Positions 904 through 27,817 of a stretch of DNA of 64,000 nt are shown piece by piece; within the stretch, counting starts at the first letter, position 1; each line of letters begins with the position of its first letter. Under the pieces are notes generated by a model. That model was given only the letters and a program-made list of their open reading frames with translations, did no database searches and was not told the DNA's origin. The position numbers and the translations under genes are program-made. The DNA comes from an uncultured archaeon (lineage in GTDB: Archaea; Thermoproteota; Nitrososphaeria; Nitrososphaerales; Gagatemarchaeaceae): NCBI GenBank assembly GCA_963817525.1, contig CAWFOU010000007.1:864001-928000 (forward strand), written 5' to 3'.

Positions 904-1584
904 CTAGCCTATCAGCGGGAGAATCTCGTTCTTGACGTACCCCTTAAAGTCGGGGAGCTCGGTCCTGCTGAAGACCGTCACCACGCAGTTCCTCGTCACC
1001 CCGACCACGTACCCGTACTTCTGGGACTTTACGACGGCGTACCAGATCTTCCCGTGCGTCAGGTAGTCGTTGTAGAGGTTGGTCGCGCCGAGCCCCTCCC
1101 CGTATAGCGAGAGCTTGGAGATGTTGGGTATGTCGACGTCGTCGAAGAAGAGGATCTTCGATTCAACACCGTCTTCGTGGAACCTCTTCAGGGTCTCGGG
1201 CTGGATCCTCCCTTCCACTATCTGGCCGAGGCTCATGAAGAGGGCCTTGCTCATCTCGTTGGCGATATTGTTCGCCCTGCTCTTCTTGTCGAAGATGCTG
1301 AGGAAGAGTTTGTCCCCGAAGAGGTCGAACATGAAGGGCGCCTCGTAGGTCCTCACGATCGAGACCATCTTCCCGTGCTGCTTCACCTGGAAGACCGTGT
1401 CGAACGCGAAGGTCCCCTCGAGGGTCTCCTTGGATATGTCCAGGTCGGTGATCTCCGAGAGGAGGGTGAAGCTGTCTCCTTCGACCCTTACCTCCTGCTC
1501 GAGCTTGAAGTCCTTAAGCTTCGAGGCGACGAGCGGCAGGTTGCGCTCCTCCGCGACGACGAATACCTTAGCGGCGAGGACCAA
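904..1584 (-). CDS. Conserved hypothetical protein
   Basis: Host-like codon usage. Probable TTG start at 1584; the ORF-track extension to 1665 overlaps tnpB. Confidence 0.7.
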   Translation of the reverse strand: MVLAAKVFVVAEERNLPLVASKLKDFKLEQEVRVEGDSFTLLSEITDLDISKETLEGTFAFDTVFQVKQHGKMVSIVRTYEAPFMFDLFGDKLFLSIFDKKSRANNIANEMSKALFMSLGQIVEGRIQPETLKRFHEDGVESKILFFDDVDIPNISKLSLYGEGLGATNLYNDYLTHGKIWYAVVKSQKYGYVVGVTRNCVVTVFSRTELPDFKGYVKNEILPLIG

Positions 1585-5095: not shown

Positions 5096-5818
5096 TTGCG
5101 CCTCATAGAGTTGTGTCGCAACATTCAGTCATCGAGCGTCAACCCCTTCGAGGTCGACATCAGGGAGAAGCTCCTGGTCCTCAAGAAGCACCTCCCGGAC
5201 TGGGGCGTCATAGACGTGATGCTCAAGGACTCGGAGGCCATGCAGCAGCTGGTCGCCATAGTCAAGCTCCAAGATCAATGGATCAAGCACAGGGCATCGG
5301 CTCTCTACATCGACCCCCTCCTCCTCGAGCTCAAGATCCAGCTGATCACCAAGGATGAGCTCGCCGAGAGCTTTGCAAAGTGCTGGCACCCGATCGCGCA
5401 GCTCGACCAGCTGACCGCGAGGGGCCTCGAGAGGGCCTTCGTCTACTGGAGGGAGCTCGTCCCCTTCAGCGAGAGGTTCAAGGACCAGTTCGGGAACTAC
5501 GGGGAGGCGGCCGGGCTGATTGGGCTGGAGGAGCTCGAGTCGCTCAGCATCTTCACCAAGGAGGAGTTTGCCTCCCGTCTCAGCTCGATCACCAAGGAGC
5601 TGGTCGAGAAGACTGACGGCAAGGAGATTGACTATCGGGGCTTCATCCAGGGCAAGGATCCCGAGGAGACCGCCCTGCGCGGATACCTGATTGCCTTCGT
5701 GGTGACCGAGGGGAGGGCGACCCTCAGGATCGACCCGCTCACCGAGCAGATATTCATCTCGGTGATCCAAGGCAAGCCCGACGACGAGACCAAGTCGGTG
5801 GCGATAGTGGTACGATGA
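5096..5818 (+). CDS. Kleisin/ScpA-like protein
   Basis: Follows the SMC gene; N-terminal VNPFEVDI resembles the ScpA DPWxIDI motif; winged-helix-like C-terminus. May start at ATT 5048 after SD AGGTGAAGG. Confidence 0.6.
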   Translation: MRLIELCRNIQSSSVNPFEVDIREKLLVLKKHLPDWGVIDVMLKDSEAMQQLVAIVKLQDQWIKHRASALYIDPLLLELKIQLITKDELAESFAKCWHPIAQLDQLTARGLERAFVYWRELVPFSERFKDQFGNYGEAAGLIGLEELESLSIFTKEEFASRLSSITKELVEKTDGKEIDYRGFIQGKDPEETALRGYLIAFVVTEGRATLRIDPLTEQIFISVIQGKPDDETKSVAIVVR

Positions 5819-6417
5819 GCGACATCGCGACACCGCCTCCGGCAGAAAGCCCTCAGTCCGAGGCAGCAGCCGAGAGGGCCTCCCTCGACCGCAAGACGAG
5901 GAGGGCCTTCCAGGTCCTGATACTCCAGCGCGGCAGGAACCCCGGCGTGAAGGGGTGGGAGATGCGGCGATACCTAGGCAAGGACTACAAGAAGATCCTC
6001 GAGGTCCTCTCGGACGACCTAAAGGCCCTGGGCCTCGAGGTGCACCAGGTCCCCGGCCCGGAGGGCACTGACGATTCGACGCGCTTCCTCCTCAGGTTCA
6101 GGGACCCTCCCACCCTCACAGAGGCGGAGACGGCCGGGTTCAGGATTGACGACCTAGCCGTGCTTGCCGCGACCATCGCACTCGTGAACTCGAAGCAGGG
6201 AAGGATCTCAAGGAAGGAGTTGGAGAGCTTCCTCAAGGGCAAGTTCCCCCGCTGGAGGATAGACTACTCCGTGGACAGGTACATCAAGCGCGGGTACCTC
6301 GACCAGGACGACAAGGACCTCATCCGCATAGGCTGGAGGACGAGGGCGGAGATCGACGAGAGGTCGCTGATGACCCTCATCCTCGCCCAAGGGACGAAGA
6401 CCGACGTCAAGAAATGA
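5815..6417 (+). CDS. Tandem winged-helix (kite/ScpB/Nse-like) protein
   Basis: ATGA overlap with the upstream gene; two wHTH-like halves ending YIKRGYL...IRIGWRT; size matches kite subunits. Confidence 0.55.
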   Translation: MSDIATPPPAESPQSEAAAERASLDRKTRRAFQVLILQRGRNPGVKGWEMRRYLGKDYKKILEVLSDDLKALGLEVHQVPGPEGTDDSTRFLLRFRDPPTLTEAETAGFRIDDLAVLAATIALVNSKQGRISRKELESFLKGKFPRWRIDYSVDRYIKRGYLDQDDKDLIRIGWRTRAEIDERSLMTLILAQGTKTDVKK

Positions 6418-19130: not shown

Positions 19131-19559
19131 TTAGCTTAAGGGGGCGGCCGTGAGCTTTATCGTGCCGGCATCGGGTTGGAGGCTCCCCATGCACGCGGAG
19201 CAACCCTCGGTGTTGAACCCGGGTTCGAGCTCCACGTGGAGCGCGCACAGCGTATGGTTGTATCTCACGTAGTCGCAGACTTCGGTCATGAGCCTGAGCG
19301 CCTCCCGGCGGTCCGGCTCGTCCGAGGCCAGGAGCTCGGCCACCCTGTCGGCGGCCTTTGCGATGTTCTGGTCGACCTCCAGGTTTAGCATCACTCCCCT
19401 CGCCTTGCGCGCGTAGTTGCTCACCGACGCCTGGGTCACCCCAAGGCGGGTGGCGACCTCCTGCTGCGTGAGGTCGTAGTCCTCGGTGAGGCGCTTCGAG
19501 ACCATCGCCCTGAAGGCCGGGAGCGCGGACTTCGACACTATCTCGTAGGGGTGGATCAA
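19131..19559 (-). CDS. XRE-type HTH transcriptional regulator with Cys/His-rich C-terminus
   Basis: LTQQEVATRLGVTQASVSNY; LCALH...CSAC. Directly upstream of lipA. Confidence 0.85.
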   Translation of the reverse strand: MIHPYEIVSKSALPAFRAMVSKRLTEDYDLTQQEVATRLGVTQASVSNYARKARGVMLNLEVDQNIAKAADRVAELLASDEPDRREALRLMTEVCDYVRYNHTLCALHVELEPGFNTEGCSACMGSLQPDAGTIKLTAAPLS

Positions 19560-19842
19560 CTGGCATTGATATTAGGCCGTTATATTTAAGTCTAAGCGCG
19601 GAGAGGGAAGGACGAACTTCGCAAGGCCAAAGACAGCGCGAAGGCCCTACGCGATGAGGCACTCCTCAACAAAGTCTTGGCCGCAGAGAAGAAGAATGTC
19701 GACGCTGACCATTCCCAAAAGGCAGTGCCGTGTCCTTTGGCTAATTCATGACAAAAGACCAAACAGATTCGTGCAGGACCGCGTTTGAGCAGTCTCCGCC
19801 TTGTCCAGGACGCCCGCTGGTAAGGACCGAACTTCTAGATAA

Positions 19843-19954: not shown

Positions 19955-20008
19955 CCCCTGATGAGTCCGTGAGATTCGGACGAAACGCCCACGTTTGTTG
20001 GCGTCGGG
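19955..20008 (+). ncRNA. Type I hammerhead ribozyme 1 (predicted cleavage after C20005)
   Basis: Stem I CCC/GGG; core CUGAUGA 19958-19964; stem II GUCCG/CGGAC with loop UGAGAUU; GAAA 19982-19985; stem III CGCC/GGCG; GUC triplet. Confidence 0.9.
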
Positions 20009-20093
20009 AAAAAATGGAAATGAACGGAAAAATTTTACACGGTTCAACGGGTTCTGCTTACCAGTATGATTTTGGTAAGGGTGGTGAAAGAGT

Positions 20094-20507
20094 ATAAGAA
20101 TCAACAATAAGAAGAAGGGGATATCGCCGCTCATTGCAACCCTCATTCTGATAGCAATTGCTATCGTTGGGGGCGGAGTGGTCTATACGCTGTTCACTAG
20201 CACAGCATCAGCAATATCAACTAACCTCCACGCAAGCGTCACGTCGGCAACTGCGTCACAATCCGCTGGGTTTACCCTGACGGTCAAGAATGACGGGACC
20301 ATCGCTTGGGCCGGAGCACCAACAATATCAGTGAACGGTGCAGTAGTAGCCACACCAGGCTGCGTTGGAGCAGGTGCATCTGGAGACAGCTACGCTTGTG
20401 CATGGGCTGGAACAATAGCTGCAGGAACAACCTATGGCATTACTGTGACTGTTGCTGGGACTAGCGGTGATTACGTTGCCTCCACATCTGTAGTAGGTAC
20501 ATCCTAG
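20094..20507 (+). CDS. Archaeal type IV pilin (probable major pilin)
   Basis: In-frame RINNKKKG|ISPLIATLILIAIAIVGGGVVY class III signal peptide upstream of the ORF-track start. SD GGTGGTGA 20080-20087; best start is ATA 20094 because an in-frame TGA lies at 20085. Confidence 0.88.
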   Translation: MRINNKKKGISPLIATLILIAIAIVGGGVVYTLFTSTASAISTNLHASVTSATASQSAGFTLTVKNDGTIAWAGAPTISVNGAVVATPGCVGAGASGDSYACAWAGTIAAGTTYGITVTVAGTSGDYVASTSVVGTS

Positions 20508-20509
20508 AA

Positions 20510-20564
20510 CCTCCTGATGAGCTGGTGGAATTCCAGCGAAATCCCGTTTTATTCGGGATAGAGG
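20510..20564 (+). ncRNA. Type I hammerhead ribozyme 2 (predicted cleavage after A20560)
   Basis: Stem I CCUC/GAGG; core CUGAUGA 20514-20520; stem II GCUGG/CCAGC with loop UGGAAUU; GAAA 20538-20541; stem III UCCCG/CGGGA; AUA triplet. Nearly fills the pilin1-pilin2 spacer. Confidence 0.9.
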
Positions 20565-20567
20565 AAA

Positions 20568-21017
20568 ATGAGGAAGATGAAACGGCGCGGAGTATCGGAA
20601 GTCATAGCCACGCTGATAATGGTAGCTGTGACCATTGCCGGCTTTGGCACATACTTTGCGGTAGCGGGCGCAAACCTTCGACTGGGTGCGTCAGTGCCGA
20701 TCGACGAGTTGCAAACACAAGCGATAGCTGTGAACGAGCAGGTACAACTAGCGTATTCGACCATAGGTGCTTCGTCTGTTTCACTCTATCTTTTCAGTTA
20801 CGGGACTTCCGCAGTCACTTTCAACACAATCGTATTCGTTTGGGGAACCAATAATGTCCGTTGTACGATGAGTCAGTCTTTGGCTCCAAACATCCTCACG
20901 GAGGTAACGATAGCAGGTGGAGCTGGATCTTGTTTTGCCACTTCGGGCTTGCCATCTTCGCCAATGACTATTACAGCAATAAGTTCTGACGGTACTCTTT
21001 TCACCTGGAGAGCGTAA
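20568..21017 (+). CDS. Archaeal type IV pilin (minor)
   Basis: MRKMKRRG|VSEVIATLIMVAVTIAG class III signal peptide. Confidence 0.88.
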   Translation: MRKMKRRGVSEVIATLIMVAVTIAGFGTYFAVAGANLRLGASVPIDELQTQAIAVNEQVQLAYSTIGASSVSLYLFSYGTSAVTFNTIVFVWGTNNVRCTMSQSLAPNILTEVTIAGGAGSCFATSGLPSSPMTITAISSDGTLFTWRA

Positions 21018-21020
21018 GAT

Positions 21021-24000
21021 TTGAAACTCGTCTCTAGAAATGGAAGGAATGGAAGGAAAGGTATCAGTACAGTCATAGGGACGATACTCTTTGTTGTCGT
21101 TGTTCTTTTCGTTCTTGGGCTCATCGTGTCTATCATGGCCGCGCAAGCCAACTATCAGCAAGCGGCGCTGGCGGCCTCTATCAGACAAGGACAGAGAAAC
21201 GGCGCACTTCTGCAACTAGGACCCTACAGCACAACTCCGAGTGCACAGAACGAAGGGTCGTTGAGCATAACAAACACTGGATCCACTGCGATTCAGTTTG
21301 TCCAAGTAATCTACGTCTATCACGAGACAGATAATACCGGTGTCACGGACGACGGCGTACTGAATCAGGTGGTCGCCACTTTCAACGCTGGTTCAGGAAG
21401 TTGTGTAACCGCACCCGCTTCCACGCTTGGGATTGGTGGACAGTGTGACTATACCGCGTCTGTGACTTTGCCAAATTCCGGTCCGTACGCCACTGCTGAC
21501 AACTGTGGAACTGGGACAGGATTGAACATGACCTGTCATGCTCAGAGACCCGCGATTGGGGTTGTCACCTTTCTAGGAAACGTCTACTGGTATAACTATA
21601 CAGCTTGGGCAGCCGGTCAAGCAACTGGAACTGGAACTTCCATAAGTTTCACTTCCACCACTTCGATCTCGAGTTCGAGCTCCACAACTTGCGAGGCTTA
21701 CTGCCTGTACACAGTAACGTTTACCGAGAGCGGGCTTCCGACAGGTTCACAGTGGGCGGTTACCTTTGATTCTATCACCGCCTACGCGCCGGCCCCGGAC
21801 GCAATAATATTCGTCAATGTTCCTACTGGTACCTACTTCTGGGTGGCCGGGTCTCCGGTAGCAGGACCTGCTGGTTACCAATACGTTGCATCACCAGGTT
21901 ATGGTAACATGGTGGTCTCTTCAACGGGTTCTAACAGTCAGAGCATCGTCTATTCACCACAGTATCTTTTGACGATGACTTCCAGTCCCTCAGCTGGAGG
22001 AACTGTAACGCCATCCACCGGATGGTTTAATCCGGGAACGGTCGTTGGTATATCTGAGACTCCGAACGCTGATTACATCTGGGGCGATTGGGTTGGAACC
22101 GGCAGCGGTCATTACAGTGGCACTGCAACTTCCACAACCGTACAAATGAATGCTCCTATCACAGAGACAGCCACATTCACGCCATTCACACGCTACACGA
22201 TCGCATTCTCAGAGGCAGGGCTTCCGTCCGGAACCACGTGGTCTATCACTGGTGTGAACAGCACAGTCACATCTGGACCCTCGCCTTCATCAACAACGAG
22301 TTCGATCAAGTTCATTGACATGGTGGCAGGAACGTACGTTTGGTCTGCTGCTTCTCCGATCGCTGGTGCAACCGGTGTTCAGTACGTCACGTCGGCTGGT
22401 GGGACAATAACTCTTCCAGACACTGGAACGCCAACTGGTTGCAGCAATTTCAATGCCGGAACAGAGACTTGTACAATCTCACAGATCACATACACAACCC
22501 AATACTTCTTGACGCTACAGGTTGCCTCTGGTCAATCGAGCTATGGAACAGTTCCTGCCGGCGGGTGGTATAACTCTGGGTCAACGCCCAGCGTAACTGC
22601 GACGCCATACCCTGGATACTCATTCGCCTCTTGGACTGGGTCTACGACTGCGCCCGGAGTGGCATACACAGGGACAAGTAACCCAACCCCAACTTACACA
22701 ACTCGTTCGCCCACCGGCATCCTGATGGACAACCCCGTAACAGAGACGGCGTCGTTTACAGTGAATCAGAGATACACCGTGGACTTTGTAGAGTCTGGTT
22801 TGCCATCTGGAACATGGGGTGTCTCGTATAACGGTACCCATACTTCCACGACAACCACAATCAGCCTCCTGAACAGCGTAACATGCAGCGGAGGCTGCTC
22901 GTGGTCGATTCCGACTGCCTATCTGGCTATCACTGTTGGTGGGGTAACCTATGTTGCTACTCCAAGCAGCGGAAGCATAGCTCTGCCAGCGACTGGGAAT
23001 TTGCCAGGAACAGGAACTGGTTGTTCATCAGTAAGTGGGACGACGTGCACGGTCAATATCACATACGAAAAGGCGTTCACGGTGATTTTTGCAGAGTCCG
23101 GGCTTCCGTCTAGTGCAAGTAAGGTATGCGGTGGTAATGGCAATGTGGAGTGTGAATGGAACGCTACGCTGGGTTCGATGGCGTCTTCCACGACTGCGTC
23201 TAATACAATCACTTTCTCTGATGTGGTTCCGGGTAGCTATGCTTGGGACATTGTTACACACCCCAACACTGGGACGACAGGTTGCAACTTTGATGTCTCT
23301 TGTAACATTGGAAACTTCACCGCTCAGACTTCGTCAGGAATGCAATACCAATACAACACCGAGGTTCTCAACGCTGGTGTCTACACGTATGATAACAACT
23401 CCGCTTCAAGTCCGCTCGTCATTCCCACATCTGGAACACCCGCGAACAATCCTGCACAAGGTCTTTCATGCACTGGCACAACTTGCACAATTAGTTTAGA
23501 CTTCGTTGCTCAATACGAGCTAAACGCCTGTGCCCTTCCAGCGGGTACTGGAGGTTTTGGTGGAGAGGGCGGTTCGTGTAACGATGCAGTGCCTCCTAAC
23601 AACCCCGGAGGTTATATTCAACTATCTGTCGTGAGCGGAAGCGGACCCCAGCCAACTGGGTATACTGTCACAAACAATTTGAACTCTGGTGTCTTCAATG
23701 GGGCGGTTGGTCTTTTCTTCAATGCCGGAACGGGATTGAAGCTAACAAGCATACCTCTTGCTGGCGATGTGTCCACAACTTGGACTTCCGACCCACAGGC
23801 AACGGGCGATGGCTGTTCAACACCAGACAGCGGTAGCTCGGGTTCGATAACCTTCACGATGGGAACAACCTGTATTTCTGAAGCAATGACATTCTCGGAA
23901 CCAACATTTTCGATCTCCTGTTCACCGGGGTCTGGTGGAAGTTGTTTGTCCGAGTCACATACTACAACCGTAGCAATCACACTCACCGGTTCAGGCTTCC

Positions 24001-24223
24001 CGGCTAGCACGACATACAGTTACTGTCTCAGTTCTAGCCCTACGAGTACCCTGTCGTGTGTGTTTGGCTCTGGAGACCAATTCACAACATCAAGTGGTGG
24101 TAGCATCCCAAGTGGCACGATTATGAGTGTAACTGGCGGTTCGGTTCCGAAGGGGACCTACTACCTAATCGTCTACTCGGAACGACAGTCGTTGCCGACG
24201 CACCGGTAACTTACTCAAGTTGA
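21021..24223 (+). CDS. Giant pilin-like adhesin with repeated beta-sandwich modules
   Basis: RKG|ISTVIGTILFVVV class III signal; four F(T/S/V/A)E(S/A)GLP repeats; GTVTP/GTVP...GW(F/Y) repeats; Cys pairs. Probable indel near 24180 with true stop at 24223. Confidence 0.8.
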
Positions 24224-24233
24224 GTGACTTAAG

Positions 24234-25954
24234 ATGACAACTGTAAAACCGACCGGAAACGGGAACGCAAGGACAACTCTCAAAGAGAGTAAGATACCGA
24301 AGGAAGTCTTGGAGAGATTCAGTCTTCTTTCGCTTCAAGGTGTGGTCACAGGGACCCAGAAGCTCATGAAATCCTACCCTGTCAAGGGCGCCCAAGTCTT
24401 GATCGTCGATGATAACGGACGAGGGTTGTACCTCATCAAGGAGCCAGACGTCACGGACGAAGACAAAGAACTCTACAGACAACTCATGGGCGGTCTCTAC
24501 TACTCGCTCAAACCAATCTCCGACCTGAAGAGTCCGCTGGCATACGTTGAGAGCTATCTCAACGACGCGGTCGTAGCACTCAAGCCAGACGCCACCCAGG
24601 AGACGAAGGACGCACTTCTCTACTACATCGGAAGAGACGTGGCTGGTTACGGGATCCTGGACGTTCCTATGACAGACTCAGAAGTTGAGGAAGTGGAGTG
24701 CAACGGCTACTCTACACCGCTCCACGTCGTGCATAGGGAGTTTTCGGAATACATGAGACTTGAGAGCAACATTCACTTTCAAACCGAGAAGATAGTCGCC
24801 GACATCGTGCAGAGGCTTGCGCAGAGGGCGGGTAAGTCTGTGACCATCGCGTATCCATTCACCGACTTCATTCTTCCGGAAGGCCACCGAGGGGCTGTGA
24901 CATACGGCAACGAAATCTCACTTCCGGGTTCCACTTTCGACATCAGGAAGTTCCCACTCGAACCATTGACGATCACGGCACTCCTGAAGTATGGGACGAT
25001 CTCGCCTCTGATGGCCGCCTACGAGTGGTTGATCGACGAGCACAGAGGGTTTACCCTTCTCATAGGAACGGTCGGTAGCGGAAAGACCACGATGCTCAAC
25101 GCGCTGCTGAGTACCCTTCATCCCAGTTCGAAGATCCTCACAGTGGAGGACACGCCCGAAATCAGGATCGCTCACGAGAACTGGATTCGATTCATAACCC
25201 GTTCGGCCTATACAATCGGTGCTAGAGAGGTCGGACTGTTCGACCTCGTAAAGACCTCACTGAGATACAGGCCTGACTATCTCGTCGTCGGAGAGGTCAG
25301 AGGCGAGGAGATCCAATCCCTCGTTCAAGCTGCGGCTGTCGGTCACGGTGCCAGCACCACGATACACGCAGAGAGTCCAGAAGCCGCGCTCGTCAGGATG
25401 CGCTCTCCGCCTCTCAGTGTCGGGGAGAGCTTCCTGATGCTCATCTGGAACATCCTTCAGATGGAGCGGGTGACCATGTCGAGCGACAAGCAAGTAAGGA
25501 GGGTCATGTCGATAACCGAGGTCGTTCCAAGTGGGACTTCATTCGAACTCAAGGAACTCTTCAACTGGGACGTTTCAACCGACACGTTCTATCCCGACGA
25601 CGCCAGGGAGGTCGCTTCGCGAAGTGAGAGACTCAAGATCGTTGCTTCGATGCGAGGCTGGAGCCAAGAGGAGCTTGTCGCAGAGCTGAACTCCAGGGTA
25701 AAGTTCCTACAGAGTCTTGTGGACAATAACCTGTTCACATACAAAGAAGTCACAGACGCTCTCTTCGCGTTCTGGAGCGGTCGGAGGGCAGTAGTACAGC
25801 CCGTGAAGGAAGCGGACGAGCTGGTGATAGTCGGCGAGGGCCCGGACGTCCCGGTCGGTATGGGAAGGGTCGATGAAATGGCAACTCCGAGCAGCATGAA
25901 CAGCCCGCACCAACTGCCGTGCTCCCAGAACCTACGCCGGAGGTCGCCAAGTAA
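24234..25954 (+). CDS. Type II/IV secretion (pilus assembly) ATPase
   Basis: GTVGSGKTT, VEDTPE, LRYRPDYLVVGEVRG, GH...TIHA. Probable indel near 25860-25890; the alternate frame ends TAA overlapping the next ATG (TAATG). Confidence 0.9.
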
Positions 25955-27817
25955 TGTCCAAGCGAGTGACGGAACCATTAGTGGTTCTCGCCGGAATAGC
26001 CCTCTTCGTCTTCGGTCTCGCACTGAGAAACGGGGTGTTTCCATCGCTGACGTCCGGAGTGTATGGAAATCTCTTCGGCGTCTCCGTCGTTTCGGTCGGC
26101 GTAGGCATAGTAACCGTCGGAATAGTAGACGCAGTAACTTTCCTAGCGTCTGGGAAATTTAGGCCGGAATCTCGCGGCTTCATGGAAAAGGTATCGCCAC
26201 CCAGCTCGATAGCAAGGCCTTTGCTCAATTCGATGTCCGGCGAAGTCTCCTCGAAAATGTCTGCGGCGGGGCTCGTAGTCAACCCACTCCTCTACGTCAC
26301 TCCGTACGTCACGTTCGCAATAATTTCGCTTACCATCACAATCCCGGTATCCTTGTTTCTCTTCCTGATGTTCCGGTTCCCACTTTTCCTCGTCATCAAC
26401 GTCTTGCCTGTGCTGATTCTCATCGCACCCACGGTCACGGTGAGCGATAGGCTTGGGAAGACAACCGCTGGTGTCGAGAGCGAGCTTCCGTACCTCGCTC
26501 TATTTGCGGCAGTGCTTCAATCCTCAGGAATTTCCCTCTATCATACGTTGGTGAAGATGAGAGAAACCGGTAAGTTCACCTGGATAGCTCTAGAGGCCGC
26601 ACTCATAGAAAAGGAGAACGTCTTCTTCGGCAAGACTGAGGCCCAAGCAATTCAGGAGCGAGCCAGGATTCATCCTAGTCAGAAATTCAAGCAATACCTT
26701 CAGGGCTACGCTTCGACCATAACGAGCGGTGGTGACGTGTCCAGATACCTCGAAGACAAGGTGAACCAGTTCTTGGGATGGAGCGAATTCAACTGGAAGA
26801 AGTATGCAAACGACAGCTCGGACATTGGCGAGGCCGTGATCTCGATCTTCTTCGTGCTGCCGATGATAATCCTCACAATGTCGTTCATCTATCCGAACGC
26901 TACCTTGAACATCGTTGAACTGATGGTCTTCCTCATCCTTCCGATGCTGAGCGGCGCGGCGTACTTCCTGATCGACAAGTCCCAACCTAAGAGTCACAAC
27001 ACCATCACCGTCAATCATTCGACTAGCCTTGGTGCTTTCTGTTGCGTCTGGGGTCTTTACAGCACTGCTCTTCCCAACGTTGTATTGGTTGGTCGTCGCC
27101 ACTTCCGTCGGCGTCTTCGCGTTCTTCGTCGGACGTTCTTCATTCACGCAGTTGCACGACATAAAGAAGATCGAGGAAGACTTGCCTCAGTTTCTCAGAG
27201 ACCTTACCGAGTACAAGAAGATAGGCTACGACATCACGAAGGCTATTCAGAAGCTTGCTGAAGAAGGCAACTATTCGAAGCAGTTTACTACCCTGATTCA
27301 GGACGTGAGCAAGCAGCTCAGCCTGGGACTGCGCATGAAGGAGGTCATAATCAAGACAAGGTCGTGGCTAACCGGCATGATGTTTGACCTGACCGCTGAC
27401 ATTGTCGAATCTGGAGGCGGAACACCGGAACTGCTCGAGATGGTCACAGACTTCACGCAGAGAATCGAGACGGTCAAGAAGGAGACGAAGTCGAACATGC
27501 GACTGTATGAGATTCTCTCAGTGGCAACACCCGTTGGTCTAACGGTGATGATCGTCCTGATTCAATTCATGCTCCAGCAGTTCGGCGGAATTGTCAGCTC
27601 AGGAGTTCATACGGGCTTCCTCAGCGAGTTCTCAAGTCCGTCATCTCAGTTCTTGGACTTGACAAAGCTTCTCATCATAGAGGCTTCGGTGGCGACTGCT
27701 TTCCTAGCGAGTAAGGCGATCGACTTCACCAACTACAGCACCTACCGGGTCTTCATGGTAGTCGTTCTCGTTGTGGCCGCGTTCGGTCTCGTGCAACTGG
27801 TGACACCAATATTCTAG
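25954..27817 (+). CDS. TadC/FlaJ-like pilus platform membrane protein (indel near 27030)
   Basis: Multiple TM helices with two GspF-like halves (ESELPY...SSG; EEDLPQFLRDLTE...ESGG) split over two frames. Confidence 0.85.

Follow-up and report, generated by a model that had tools for sequence, protein, structure and literature searches.

The DNA analysed here, referred to below as the window, is a stretch of 64,000 nucleotides (nt) from an uncultured archaeon of the Gagatemarchaeaceae (assembly GCA_963817525.1, contig CAWFOU010000007.1, positions 864,001 to 928,000). It carries an operon for an archaeal type IV pilus in which the first pilin gene, pilin1, is bracketed on the coding strand by two hammerhead ribozyme motifs, namely: HH1 in the 5′ region of the operon, and HH2 in the spacer between pilin1 and the second pilin gene, pilin2. 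By structure and family-model score, both are bona fide members of a widespread hammerhead subfamily that has a short stem I. Comparison with an orthologous locus identifies HH2 as a conserved element and HH1 as a lineage-specific addition. On balance, we favour the view that the ribozymes would process the polycistronic pilus transcript into a separate pilin1 mRNA and a downstream mRNA with a short leader.

Two type I hammerheads around pilin1

As the criterion for a type I core we used C3 U4 G5 A6 N7 G8 A9 and G12 A13 A14, together with an A15.1-U16.1 pair and any nucleotide but G at position 17 (H17). The required elements (CUGAUGA, GAAA and UH) are present in the right order in both HH1 and HH2 (Table 1). 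Each motif forms three helices, of which II and III end in loops while I is open: 3 or 4 base pairs (bp) in helix I, 5 bp in helix II, and 4-5 bp plus the A-U pair in helix III. In HH1, stem I is CCC/GGG, and the CUGAUGA core is accompanied by stem II GUCCG/CGGAC with loop UGAGAUU, then GAAA, stem III CGCC/GGCG and the cleavage triplet GUC. HH2 has the same CUGAUGA core, with stem I CCUC/GAGG, stem II GCUGG/CCAGC with loop UGGAAUU, then GAAA, stem III UCCCG/CGGGA and the cleavage triplet AUA. The loop II motif UGRRAUU is common to many members of the subfamily.

A first-pass annotation of the window had described two complete type I hammerheads on the coding strand, with stems that differ in sequence and nevertheless pair. 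Both motifs were found as described, and their helices are related by compensatory, two-sided changes in 3 of the 5 stem II pairs and 2 of the 4 stem III pairs. The minimum-free-energy fold of HH2 is the hammerhead fold, and that of HH1 is nearly so; the folding energy of HH2 is modest (z -2.13, equalled by 4 of 200 shuffles). As had also been noted in that annotation, HH2 nearly fills the spacer, since it begins 2 nt past the TAG of pilin1 and its predicted cut lies 7 nt ahead of the pilin2 AUG. The 3′ strand of its stem I, GAGG (20561-20564), stands 3 nt ahead of that AUG at 20568.

A strict descriptor made up of the core and the three stems has 3 type I matches on the two strands of the 2.82-Mb genome, and two of them are HH1 and HH2. 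In order to place the motifs within a family, we took a seed pattern from the core and loop II of the window copies (core, 5-bp stem II and loop UGRRAUU). This pattern found 49 loci in one-genome-per-species contigs, where rough arithmetic gives about 4 by chance, and at least 120 viral contigs. A covariance model, R2, was then built from 53 full-length matches in the 49 genome loci, none of which came from this genome; it should be noted that the independence of R2 is limited to stems III and I and the cleavage site, as the seeds were chosen via the core and loop II of the window. In the window, HH1 scores 60.9 bits (E value 1.6e-15) and HH2 60.7 bits (1.8e-15), and over the 2.8-Mb genome they are the sole strong matches, all others scoring 16 bits or less. 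Furthermore, in an alignment of 50 distinct sequences from other genomes, which was fitted to the model and is to be read with that caveat, 96.7% of cells are paired vs. 67.7% in shuffles, and 12 of the 13 pairs change on both sides; controls with slid partners pair in 28-40%. Two other approaches were abandoned. A stemless core pattern does no better than chance in the window (3 matches vs. 2.17 expected, with 28 of 100 shuffles reaching 3) and was dropped as evidence, and the 14-21-bit matches obtained in the genus with a model built from HH1 and HH2 (R1) were rejected after inspection showed no hammerhead core at any of them.

Conservation of the locus and its genomic setting

When metagenomes were scanned with a pattern specific to HH2, 71 loci were found, among which one, the 2.5-kb contig L298, is orthologous. 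It encodes pilin1 and pilin2 with 74% and 92% amino acid (aa) identity, respectively, followed by the start of the large protein that comes next in the window, and it has the same AUA at the pilin1 start position. Its HH2 scores 60.3 bits with R2, and no second hammerhead was found on the contig by R2 with all filters off. The divergent helix-turn-helix (HTH) gene and pilin1 are separated by about 150 nt in L298 vs. about 535 nt in the window; the extra upstream DNA of the window, which is single-copy in the genome, holds HH1. Because L298 keeps HH2 without HH1, the two-ribozyme bracket is lineage-specific and not a conserved design.

DNA contigs from four sequencing runs (X1, X3, X5 and X6) were also compared, on the assumption that the differences listed are complete up to position 20726. 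Contigs of X1 and X3 that are identical to the window cover HH1. A 20-kb contig of X6, about 92% identical, covers 20063-21100 and has upstream sequence of the L298 type, while a contig of X5 has HH2 with ten extra bases past the stop codon. Among the differences listed for X6, X5 and L298, those in HH2 fall in loop II (20528, 20529 and 20532) and at the loop-closing pair of stem III (20546) only. In the pilin1 gene of the X6 contig, 11 of the 14 differences listed are at third codon positions, which argues that this frame is under purifying selection.

The pilin1 product matches TIGR02537 (archaellin/type IV pilin N-terminal domain) with 32.5 bits against a cut-off of 20 and has a weak full-length match to UpsA; Pfam gives no match for either pilin. 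As expected of an archaeal pilus system, an assembly ATPase and a polytopic membrane protein share the operon with the pilins. The operon thus resembles the Ups pili operon of Sulfolobus in having two small pilins with class III signal peptides, a T2SSE ATPase and a T2SSF membrane protein. It differs in that the UpsA and UpsB matches are far below the NCBIfam equivalog cut-offs (32.8 vs. 130 and 21.2 vs. 70, respectively), in gene order and in the presence of the 1062-aa pilin-like protein. We know of no ribozymes in ups operons, although no search aimed at that was made. The open reading frame (ORF) of the ATPase overlaps the next one by about 200 nt and has an Arg/Ser-rich tail that seems to be out of frame, and the T2SSF membrane protein is split over two overlapping ORFs (25954-27261 and 27029-27817); frameshifts or assembly errors may account for this.

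No ATG, GTG or TTG codon occurs between the in-frame TGA (20085) and the hydrophobic segment of pilin1, and the same holds for L298 (about 985-1025, minus strand). AUA 20094 is, from its position, the likely start. Several small ORFs surround this region. For the 27-codon upstream ORF, a homologue search gave none, and its 5′ part is missing from L298. A 14-codon ORF (ATG 20066, stop 20108-20110) overlaps the pilin1 start and is kept in L298. Finally, a 65-aa ORF that ends 9 nt ahead of HH1 matches no PHROG, and 150 genomes of the order contain no homologue of it.

To one side of the cassette lie genes for a 2-oxoacid dehydrogenase complex and for lipoyl synthase, to the other radical SAM and ilvB-, leuA- and leuC-like genes. 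The window contains no tRNA gene, and no integrase or repeat occurs near the cassette. The locus is chromosomal and no obvious provirus. Neither in 22 other genomes of the genus nor among its four paralogues in the same genome does the pilus ATPase have a counterpart of more than 38-41% identity. Since searches of the genus with pilin2 and the ATPase gave distant paralogues alone (22-41% identity), the genus offers no orthologous operon for comparison. In addition, a metagenome scan with the pilus ATPase found no relative, and a DNA search of 40 relatives with an 801-nt region gave just two short matches at chance level. The pilus cassette is an accessory system that was probably acquired.

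Table 1. Ribozymes, genes and signals of the pilus locus, in window coordinates.
Feature	Position	Strand	Basis or remark
HH1, type I hammerhead, 5′ region of pilus operon	19955-20008	+	Predicted cut after C20005
HH2, type I hammerhead, pilin1-pilin2 spacer	20510-20564	+	Predicted cut after A20560
RNA freed by double cleavage (predicted)	20006-20560, 555 nt	+	Two cut sites and established hammerhead chemistry; predicted 5′-OH and 2′,3′-cyclic phosphate ends
pilin1, UpsA-like archaeal type IV pilin	20094-20507	+	Class III signal peptide ...KKKG/ISPLIATL...
pilin2, UpsB-like archaeal type IV pilin	20568-21017	+	TIGR02537 26.5 bits (cut-off 20), weak UpsB match
Shine-Dalgarno-like GGUGGUGA	20080-20087	+	6 nt ahead of AUA 20094; GGUGA core and spacing kept in L298
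27-codon upstream ORF	20014-20097	+	AUG 8 nt past HH1 cut; UAA stop overlaps AUA 20094 by two bases
1062-aa protein, pilin-like N-terminus and Ig/InlB-B-like repeats	21021-24209	+	Pfam Flg_new_2 2e-09; Pilin_N 20.6 bits, below cut-off
Pilus assembly ATPase (T2SSE family)	24234-26162	+	Pfam T2SSE 1.1e-31, 110 bits
Two overlapping ORFs with T2SSF (TadC/UpsF-like) membrane-protein domains	25954-27817	+	Pfam T2SSF, weak 20 bits and 37.7 bits
Divergent HTH regulator gene	19131-19559	-	Pfam HTH families
TATA-like box TTATATTTAA, between HTH gene and operon	19580-19590		Read by eye; kept in L298

Distribution and placement of the subfamily

R2 finds the subfamily in 15 of 150 other genomes of the order, and 10 of 64 genera are represented, including that of this genome. 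Over the phylum, 1 of 150 sampled genomes has a match, and that one lies within the same order. In most of the archaeal relatives the genome holds just one hammerhead. G123 and G169, two genomes of the order, share the genes flanking their hammerheads with contigs titled Nitrosotalea (L086-L088), and contigs titled Bathyarchaeota also hold hammerheads of the subfamily. In one of the latter, L091, two tandem paralogous genes for small secreted proteins are each directly followed by a hammerhead.

The placement of the ribozymes relative to genes is regular. The 120 viral loci, as counted with the strict descriptor, hold 148 copies, with more than one copy in 24 loci. When ORFs of at least 50 codons are considered, 85 of the 148 copies (57%) start within 15 nt past a stop codon vs. 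6.3% of 4800 random windows drawn from the same loci, and in 73 of the 148 the next such ORF starts no more than 40 nt from the cut vs. 9.7% for these windows. Archaeal loci have the stop-ribozyme-start layout too, with 4-30 nt from the predicted cut to the start: 4 nt in L250, 6 nt in L227, 14 nt in L224 and L249, and 8 nt for the first AUG past HH1. In several of them, the purine-rich 3′ strand of stem I doubles as a Shine-Dalgarno (SD) sequence. The proteins encoded downstream have a hydrophobic N-terminus in about 9-10 of 13-14 contexts, which were grouped post hoc by the analyst, vs. 18-20% of 2022 long ORFs in this genome. A phage tail tube gene (PF18906), probably proviral, is among the exceptions. 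Among all loci examined, a class III signal-peptide motif stands beside a hammerhead in this locus and in L298 only, the latter without HH1, and hammerhead and pilin are thus not a recurrent pairing. For the viral copies, a rule that they precede structural genes was rejected on the results of PHROGs for 10 downstream ORFs, of which 7 had no match, 2 belonged to families of unknown function and 1 was a DNA methyltransferase.

Several individual loci deserve mention. In the Bathyarchaeota-titled loci L091 (5558-6386, minus strand), L071 and L085, the secreted paralogues are about 160 aa long (MKIE...) with a hammerhead at most 1 nt after each copy examined; they belong to no Pfam or NCBIfam family. 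With 5-7 consecutive T residues, the stem III loop of these hammerheads may place an archaeal termination signal within the ribozyme itself. In L221, L222 and L223 (genomes G036, G052 and G073, of one genus), the hammerhead begins 0-2 nt past the stop codon of an ORF of 140-147 aa and is followed by a phage tail tube gene (PF18906, 3.5e-25), whose start codon lies about 25-28 nt after the cut; these loci are probably proviral. Hammerheads of the same subfamily also occur within tRNA gene arrays on Propionicimonas-titled and metagenome contigs (L052, 4806-6035; L068, L090, L093, L278 and L283). In L052, a hammerhead that starts at 5404 follows a tRNA-Ser gene ending at 5390, and another that ends at 6035 precedes a tRNA-Lys gene starting at 6047, an arrangement that suggests ribozyme processing of tRNA cluster transcripts. 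Finally, L249 (1500-1557, genome G312) has a hammerhead-like element ahead of a gene for a DsbD_TM-type secreted protein, in which CCGAAGA replaces CUGAUGA, so that core position 4 is C and not U; L224 reads CUGAAGA at the orthologous position. The L249 element is either a core variant or a decayed copy.

Proposed processing of the pilus transcript

In the processing that we propose, HH1 and HH2 would be active type I hammerheads of the prokaryotic/viral short-stem-I subfamily, transcribed within the Ups-like type IV pilus operon of a soil archaeon. From the motifs and the known chemistry of hammerheads we infer cleavage in vivo, the nature of the resulting ends and an effect on expression. 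Once transcribed, HH2 would fold and cut between pilin1 and pilin2. Stems II and III of the ribozyme would stay on the pilin1 message as a compact, structured 3′ terminus with a 2′,3′-cyclic phosphate, while the downstream message, which encodes pilin2, the large pilin-like protein, the ATPase and the membrane protein, would carry a 5′-OH 7 nt ahead of its AUG, with GAGG as its outermost 5′ sequence. Because stem I of HH2 is 4 bp, the products would part at once and cleavage would be effectively irreversible; in the subfamily, stem I is only 3-6 bp, which would favour product release over re-ligation by the ribozyme. HH1 would likewise trim a long 5′ leader to leave a 5′-OH 8 nt ahead of an AUG. 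The two cuts together would free an RNA of 555 nt with the pilin coding sequence (CDS) and its SD sequence, a consequence of the two cut sites that had been drawn in the first-pass annotation and that holds. As an outcome, the stability and translation of pilin1 would be uncoupled from those of the remaining operon. The segmental stability that RNases create in bacterial pilus operons follows the same logic.

Several observations weigh against this proposal. The check with the Rfam hammerhead models that had been suggested for the window came out negative: at the gathering score, Rfam 15 has no match to HH1 or HH2, nor does it give a usable one by E-value, the best sub-threshold score being a partial match of 21.1 bits to Hammerhead_3 (RF00008), where 48.5 are required, with 18.7 bits for Hammerhead_1 (RF00163), where 34 are required. 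HH1 has a stem I of only 3 bp and HH2 one of only 4 bp, and no tertiary contact was identified; a reading of the flanks by eye showed no consistent complement to the loop II motif. The folding energy of HH1 is ordinary (z -0.74, with 42 of 200 shuffles folding equally well). HH2 is identical to its L298 counterpart at 51 of 55 positions, which is no higher than the identity of the neighbouring pilin2 gene, and the case for conservation beyond background thus comes solely from where the changes fall. A pilin1 gene without a canonical start codon sits badly with a highly expressed ‘major’ subunit, and a promoter between HH1 and pilin1, if there is any, would put HH1 outside the pilin message. 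In addition, R2 has matches in 3 of 96 genomes of the family and in none of the 22 other genomes of the genus; because the rest of the genus is without these ribozymes and the cassette has no close relative there, HH1 and HH2 may be a recent, possibly neutral, acquisition.

As for Rfam, at its gathering thresholds it detects 0 of 20 related archaeal loci (L056-L233) as well. The missing match therefore appears to reflect a gap in the models and not to be evidence against the motif, and standard annotation via Rfam 15 would leave the short-stem-I subfamily unmarked. It follows that little can be made of the failure to reach the gathering scores as a sign that HH1 and HH2 are chance look-alikes without ribozyme function, a reading with which the loose core pattern, no commoner than in shuffles, would also agree. 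Given about 61 bits for each with R2 (independent to the extent stated above), the lack of any other such match in 2.8 Mb, and the covariation in the family, we regard that reading as refuted in practice. It is more conceivable, though still rather unlikely, that the hammerheads hitch-hiked on horizontally transferred or virus-derived DNA and cleave, or once cleaved, with no adaptive role in pilus expression. The subfamily is abundant in viral contigs, where at least 120 loci match one narrow pattern, and some archaeal copies are themselves probably proviral, such as those directly ahead of the tail tube gene. Its spread is sporadic, with none outside the order among the 150 phylum genomes; the pilus cassette is unique in the genus, and HH1 lies within a segment absent from L298. 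However, the cores of HH1 and HH2 are both intact, and HH2 is kept in three diverged relatives with changes, among the differences listed, at unconstrained positions only. It also fits the stop-to-start spacer exactly, with the SD sequence in stem I, and the HH1 segment is single-copy in a chromosomal setting of housekeeping genes, with no integrase, tRNA or repeat nearby.

Two further readings accept that the ribozymes are at work and assign them other roles, and we consider both improbable. In one of them, stem I of HH2 would hide the SD sequence of pilin2, and cleavage would free it, such that pilin2 and the downstream genes would be translated from the processed RNA only. This agrees with the overlap of GAGG and stem I ahead of AUG 20568, and with the purine-rich stem I 3′ strand and the start 4-14 nt past the cut in L056, L224, L227, L233, L249 and L250. 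Yet a second GAGG-AUG pair lies just downstream, outside the ribozyme (20570-20579), a separate GGAGGUGA follows stem I in L086, L219 and L221-223, and a helix of 4 bp would do little to keep ribosomes out. In the other, the 555-nt RNA would be closed into a translatable, exonuclease-resistant circle and translated from its internal SD sequence. Either RtcB would close it, or the hammerhead reaction would run in reverse, the body of HH2 being paired to the new 5′ GGG. Two ribozymes on the same strand do delimit a complete CDS with an internal SD sequence, their predicted ends are RtcB substrates by established chemistry, and the stem I strands of HH1 and HH2 are cross-compatible for 3 pairs, which follows the family consensus and is not specific. 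The rtcB gene expected by the first-pass annotation is present in the genome (479.7 bits), but as nearly all archaea have RtcB, its presence does not discriminate. Circles delimited by hammerheads are found in retrozymes (PMC4918200, PMC7229834). Against a circle, L298 and the X6 contig keep HH2 without HH1, and the pilin there works without a ribozyme-made 5′-OH; without HH1, the 5′ end of the L298 pilin transcript would stay primary, so that RtcB could not join it. Moreover, the 555-nt fold has no significant end-to-end pairing: a long-range pairing of the leader with HH2 was rejected, as it is equalled in 75 of 1000 shuffles and in 343 of 752 natural windows. A stem I of 3-4 bp disfavours ligation by the ribozyme, most archaeal relatives have one hammerhead each, and Perreault et al. 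(PMC3088659) found no circular products when they looked for them with the clustered hammerheads of bacteria. If true, a circular, or at least doubly end-protected, pilin1 mRNA would be a long-lived message for an exposed pilus subunit and, as a circle, the first case in nature of a ribozyme making a circular mRNA from a cellular structural gene.

The rtcB match itself is split (G000:C1:1102130-1104943, minus strand; loci L234 and L235), in that a single open frame of 996 aa holds profile positions 1-50 and 49-426 at a distance of about 1.4 kb, a pattern as expected of an intein-containing rtcB.

The processing of the pilus transcript that we favour agrees with what Perreault et al. (PMC3088659, published in 2011) proposed for hammerhead clusters in bacterial prophages. 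There, clustered hammerheads flank single genes in Clostridium scindens, Azorhizobium caulinodans and Agrobacterium tumefaciens (ardA), and they cleave in vitro and in E. coli; the authors proposed mRNA processing, and they report that a search for circular or spliced products gave none. As in those clusters, hammerheads with canonical cores bracket one gene or a short block on the same strand, with the HH1 and HH2 cut sites 555 nt apart. Unlike them, the present pair lies in an archaeon, in a chromosomal pilus operon among housekeeping genes with no integrase or tRNA; its cargo is a recognisable pilin instead of a small unknown ORF, and only one of the two ribozymes, HH2, is kept in the orthologous locus. 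A second precedent is HHphage of the haloarchaeal viruses HF1 and HF2, where a hammerhead lies 13 nt ahead of a start codon and the transcript 5′ end maps within 3 nt of the cut (PMC3088659). HH1 and HH2 likewise are archaeal hammerheads a few nt ahead of a start (7-8 nt here), whereas HHphage is viral and single, a salt-dependent variant with an insertion near C3, in contrast to the cellular bracket described here. The resemblance to retrozymes and viroid-like RNAs, in which two hammerheads on the same strand delimit an RNA of about 600 nt with ligase-fit ends, as predicted here (PMC4918200, PMC7229834), has its limits. Those RNAs are non-coding, while the RNA predicted here is protein-coding. 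In addition, retrozyme hammerheads are direct-repeat copies whose monomer ends rebuild the ribozyme, whereas HH1 and HH2 share little beyond the core and cross-pair over a 3-bp stem I only; and of the two, L298 has HH2 alone, where a conserved circular RNA would call for both in related loci.

Among engineered systems, insulator ribozymes and the twister-flanked ‘Tornado’ circles provide precedents, and hammerheads have been used to make leaderless mRNAs in engineered constructs. As in such constructs, a ribozyme ahead of the start or after the CDS is predicted to set exact RNA ends independently of promoter and terminator, in this case in a natural locus.

The first-pass annotation had also taken a ribozyme-bracketed chromosomal structural gene in archaea to be undescribed. 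In the broad sense this does not hold, as ribozyme-bracketed prokaryotic genes are not new (PMC3088659), and both hammerheads in archaea and gene-flanking hammerheads have been in print since 2011 (PMC3088659, PMC6155905). In the narrow sense it may stand: our literature search found no hammerhead described in an archaeal pilus or other cellular structural-gene operon, with the proviso that the supplementary alignments of the 2011 paper may already hold members of the subfamily. What is new here is the archaeal cellular operon together with a cargo gene of known function. According to a 2017 review (PMC6155905), the flanked ORFs are small and of unknown function, and the biological role of prokaryotic hammerheads is open.

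The known clusters flank small prophage ORFs of unknown function, and the pilin locus is an interpretable test case by comparison: the role of the flanked gene is clear and unequal expression is an obvious requirement of the operon, such that a simple test could answer the question of function. The short-stem-I subfamily occurs in about 1 in 10 genomes of one archaeal order and sits very regularly between a stop codon and the next start codon. Since the archaeal copies are often predicted to cut 4-14 nt ahead of the starts of genes for secreted or membrane proteins, these ribozymes may create short-leader, leaderless-like messages from inside operons.

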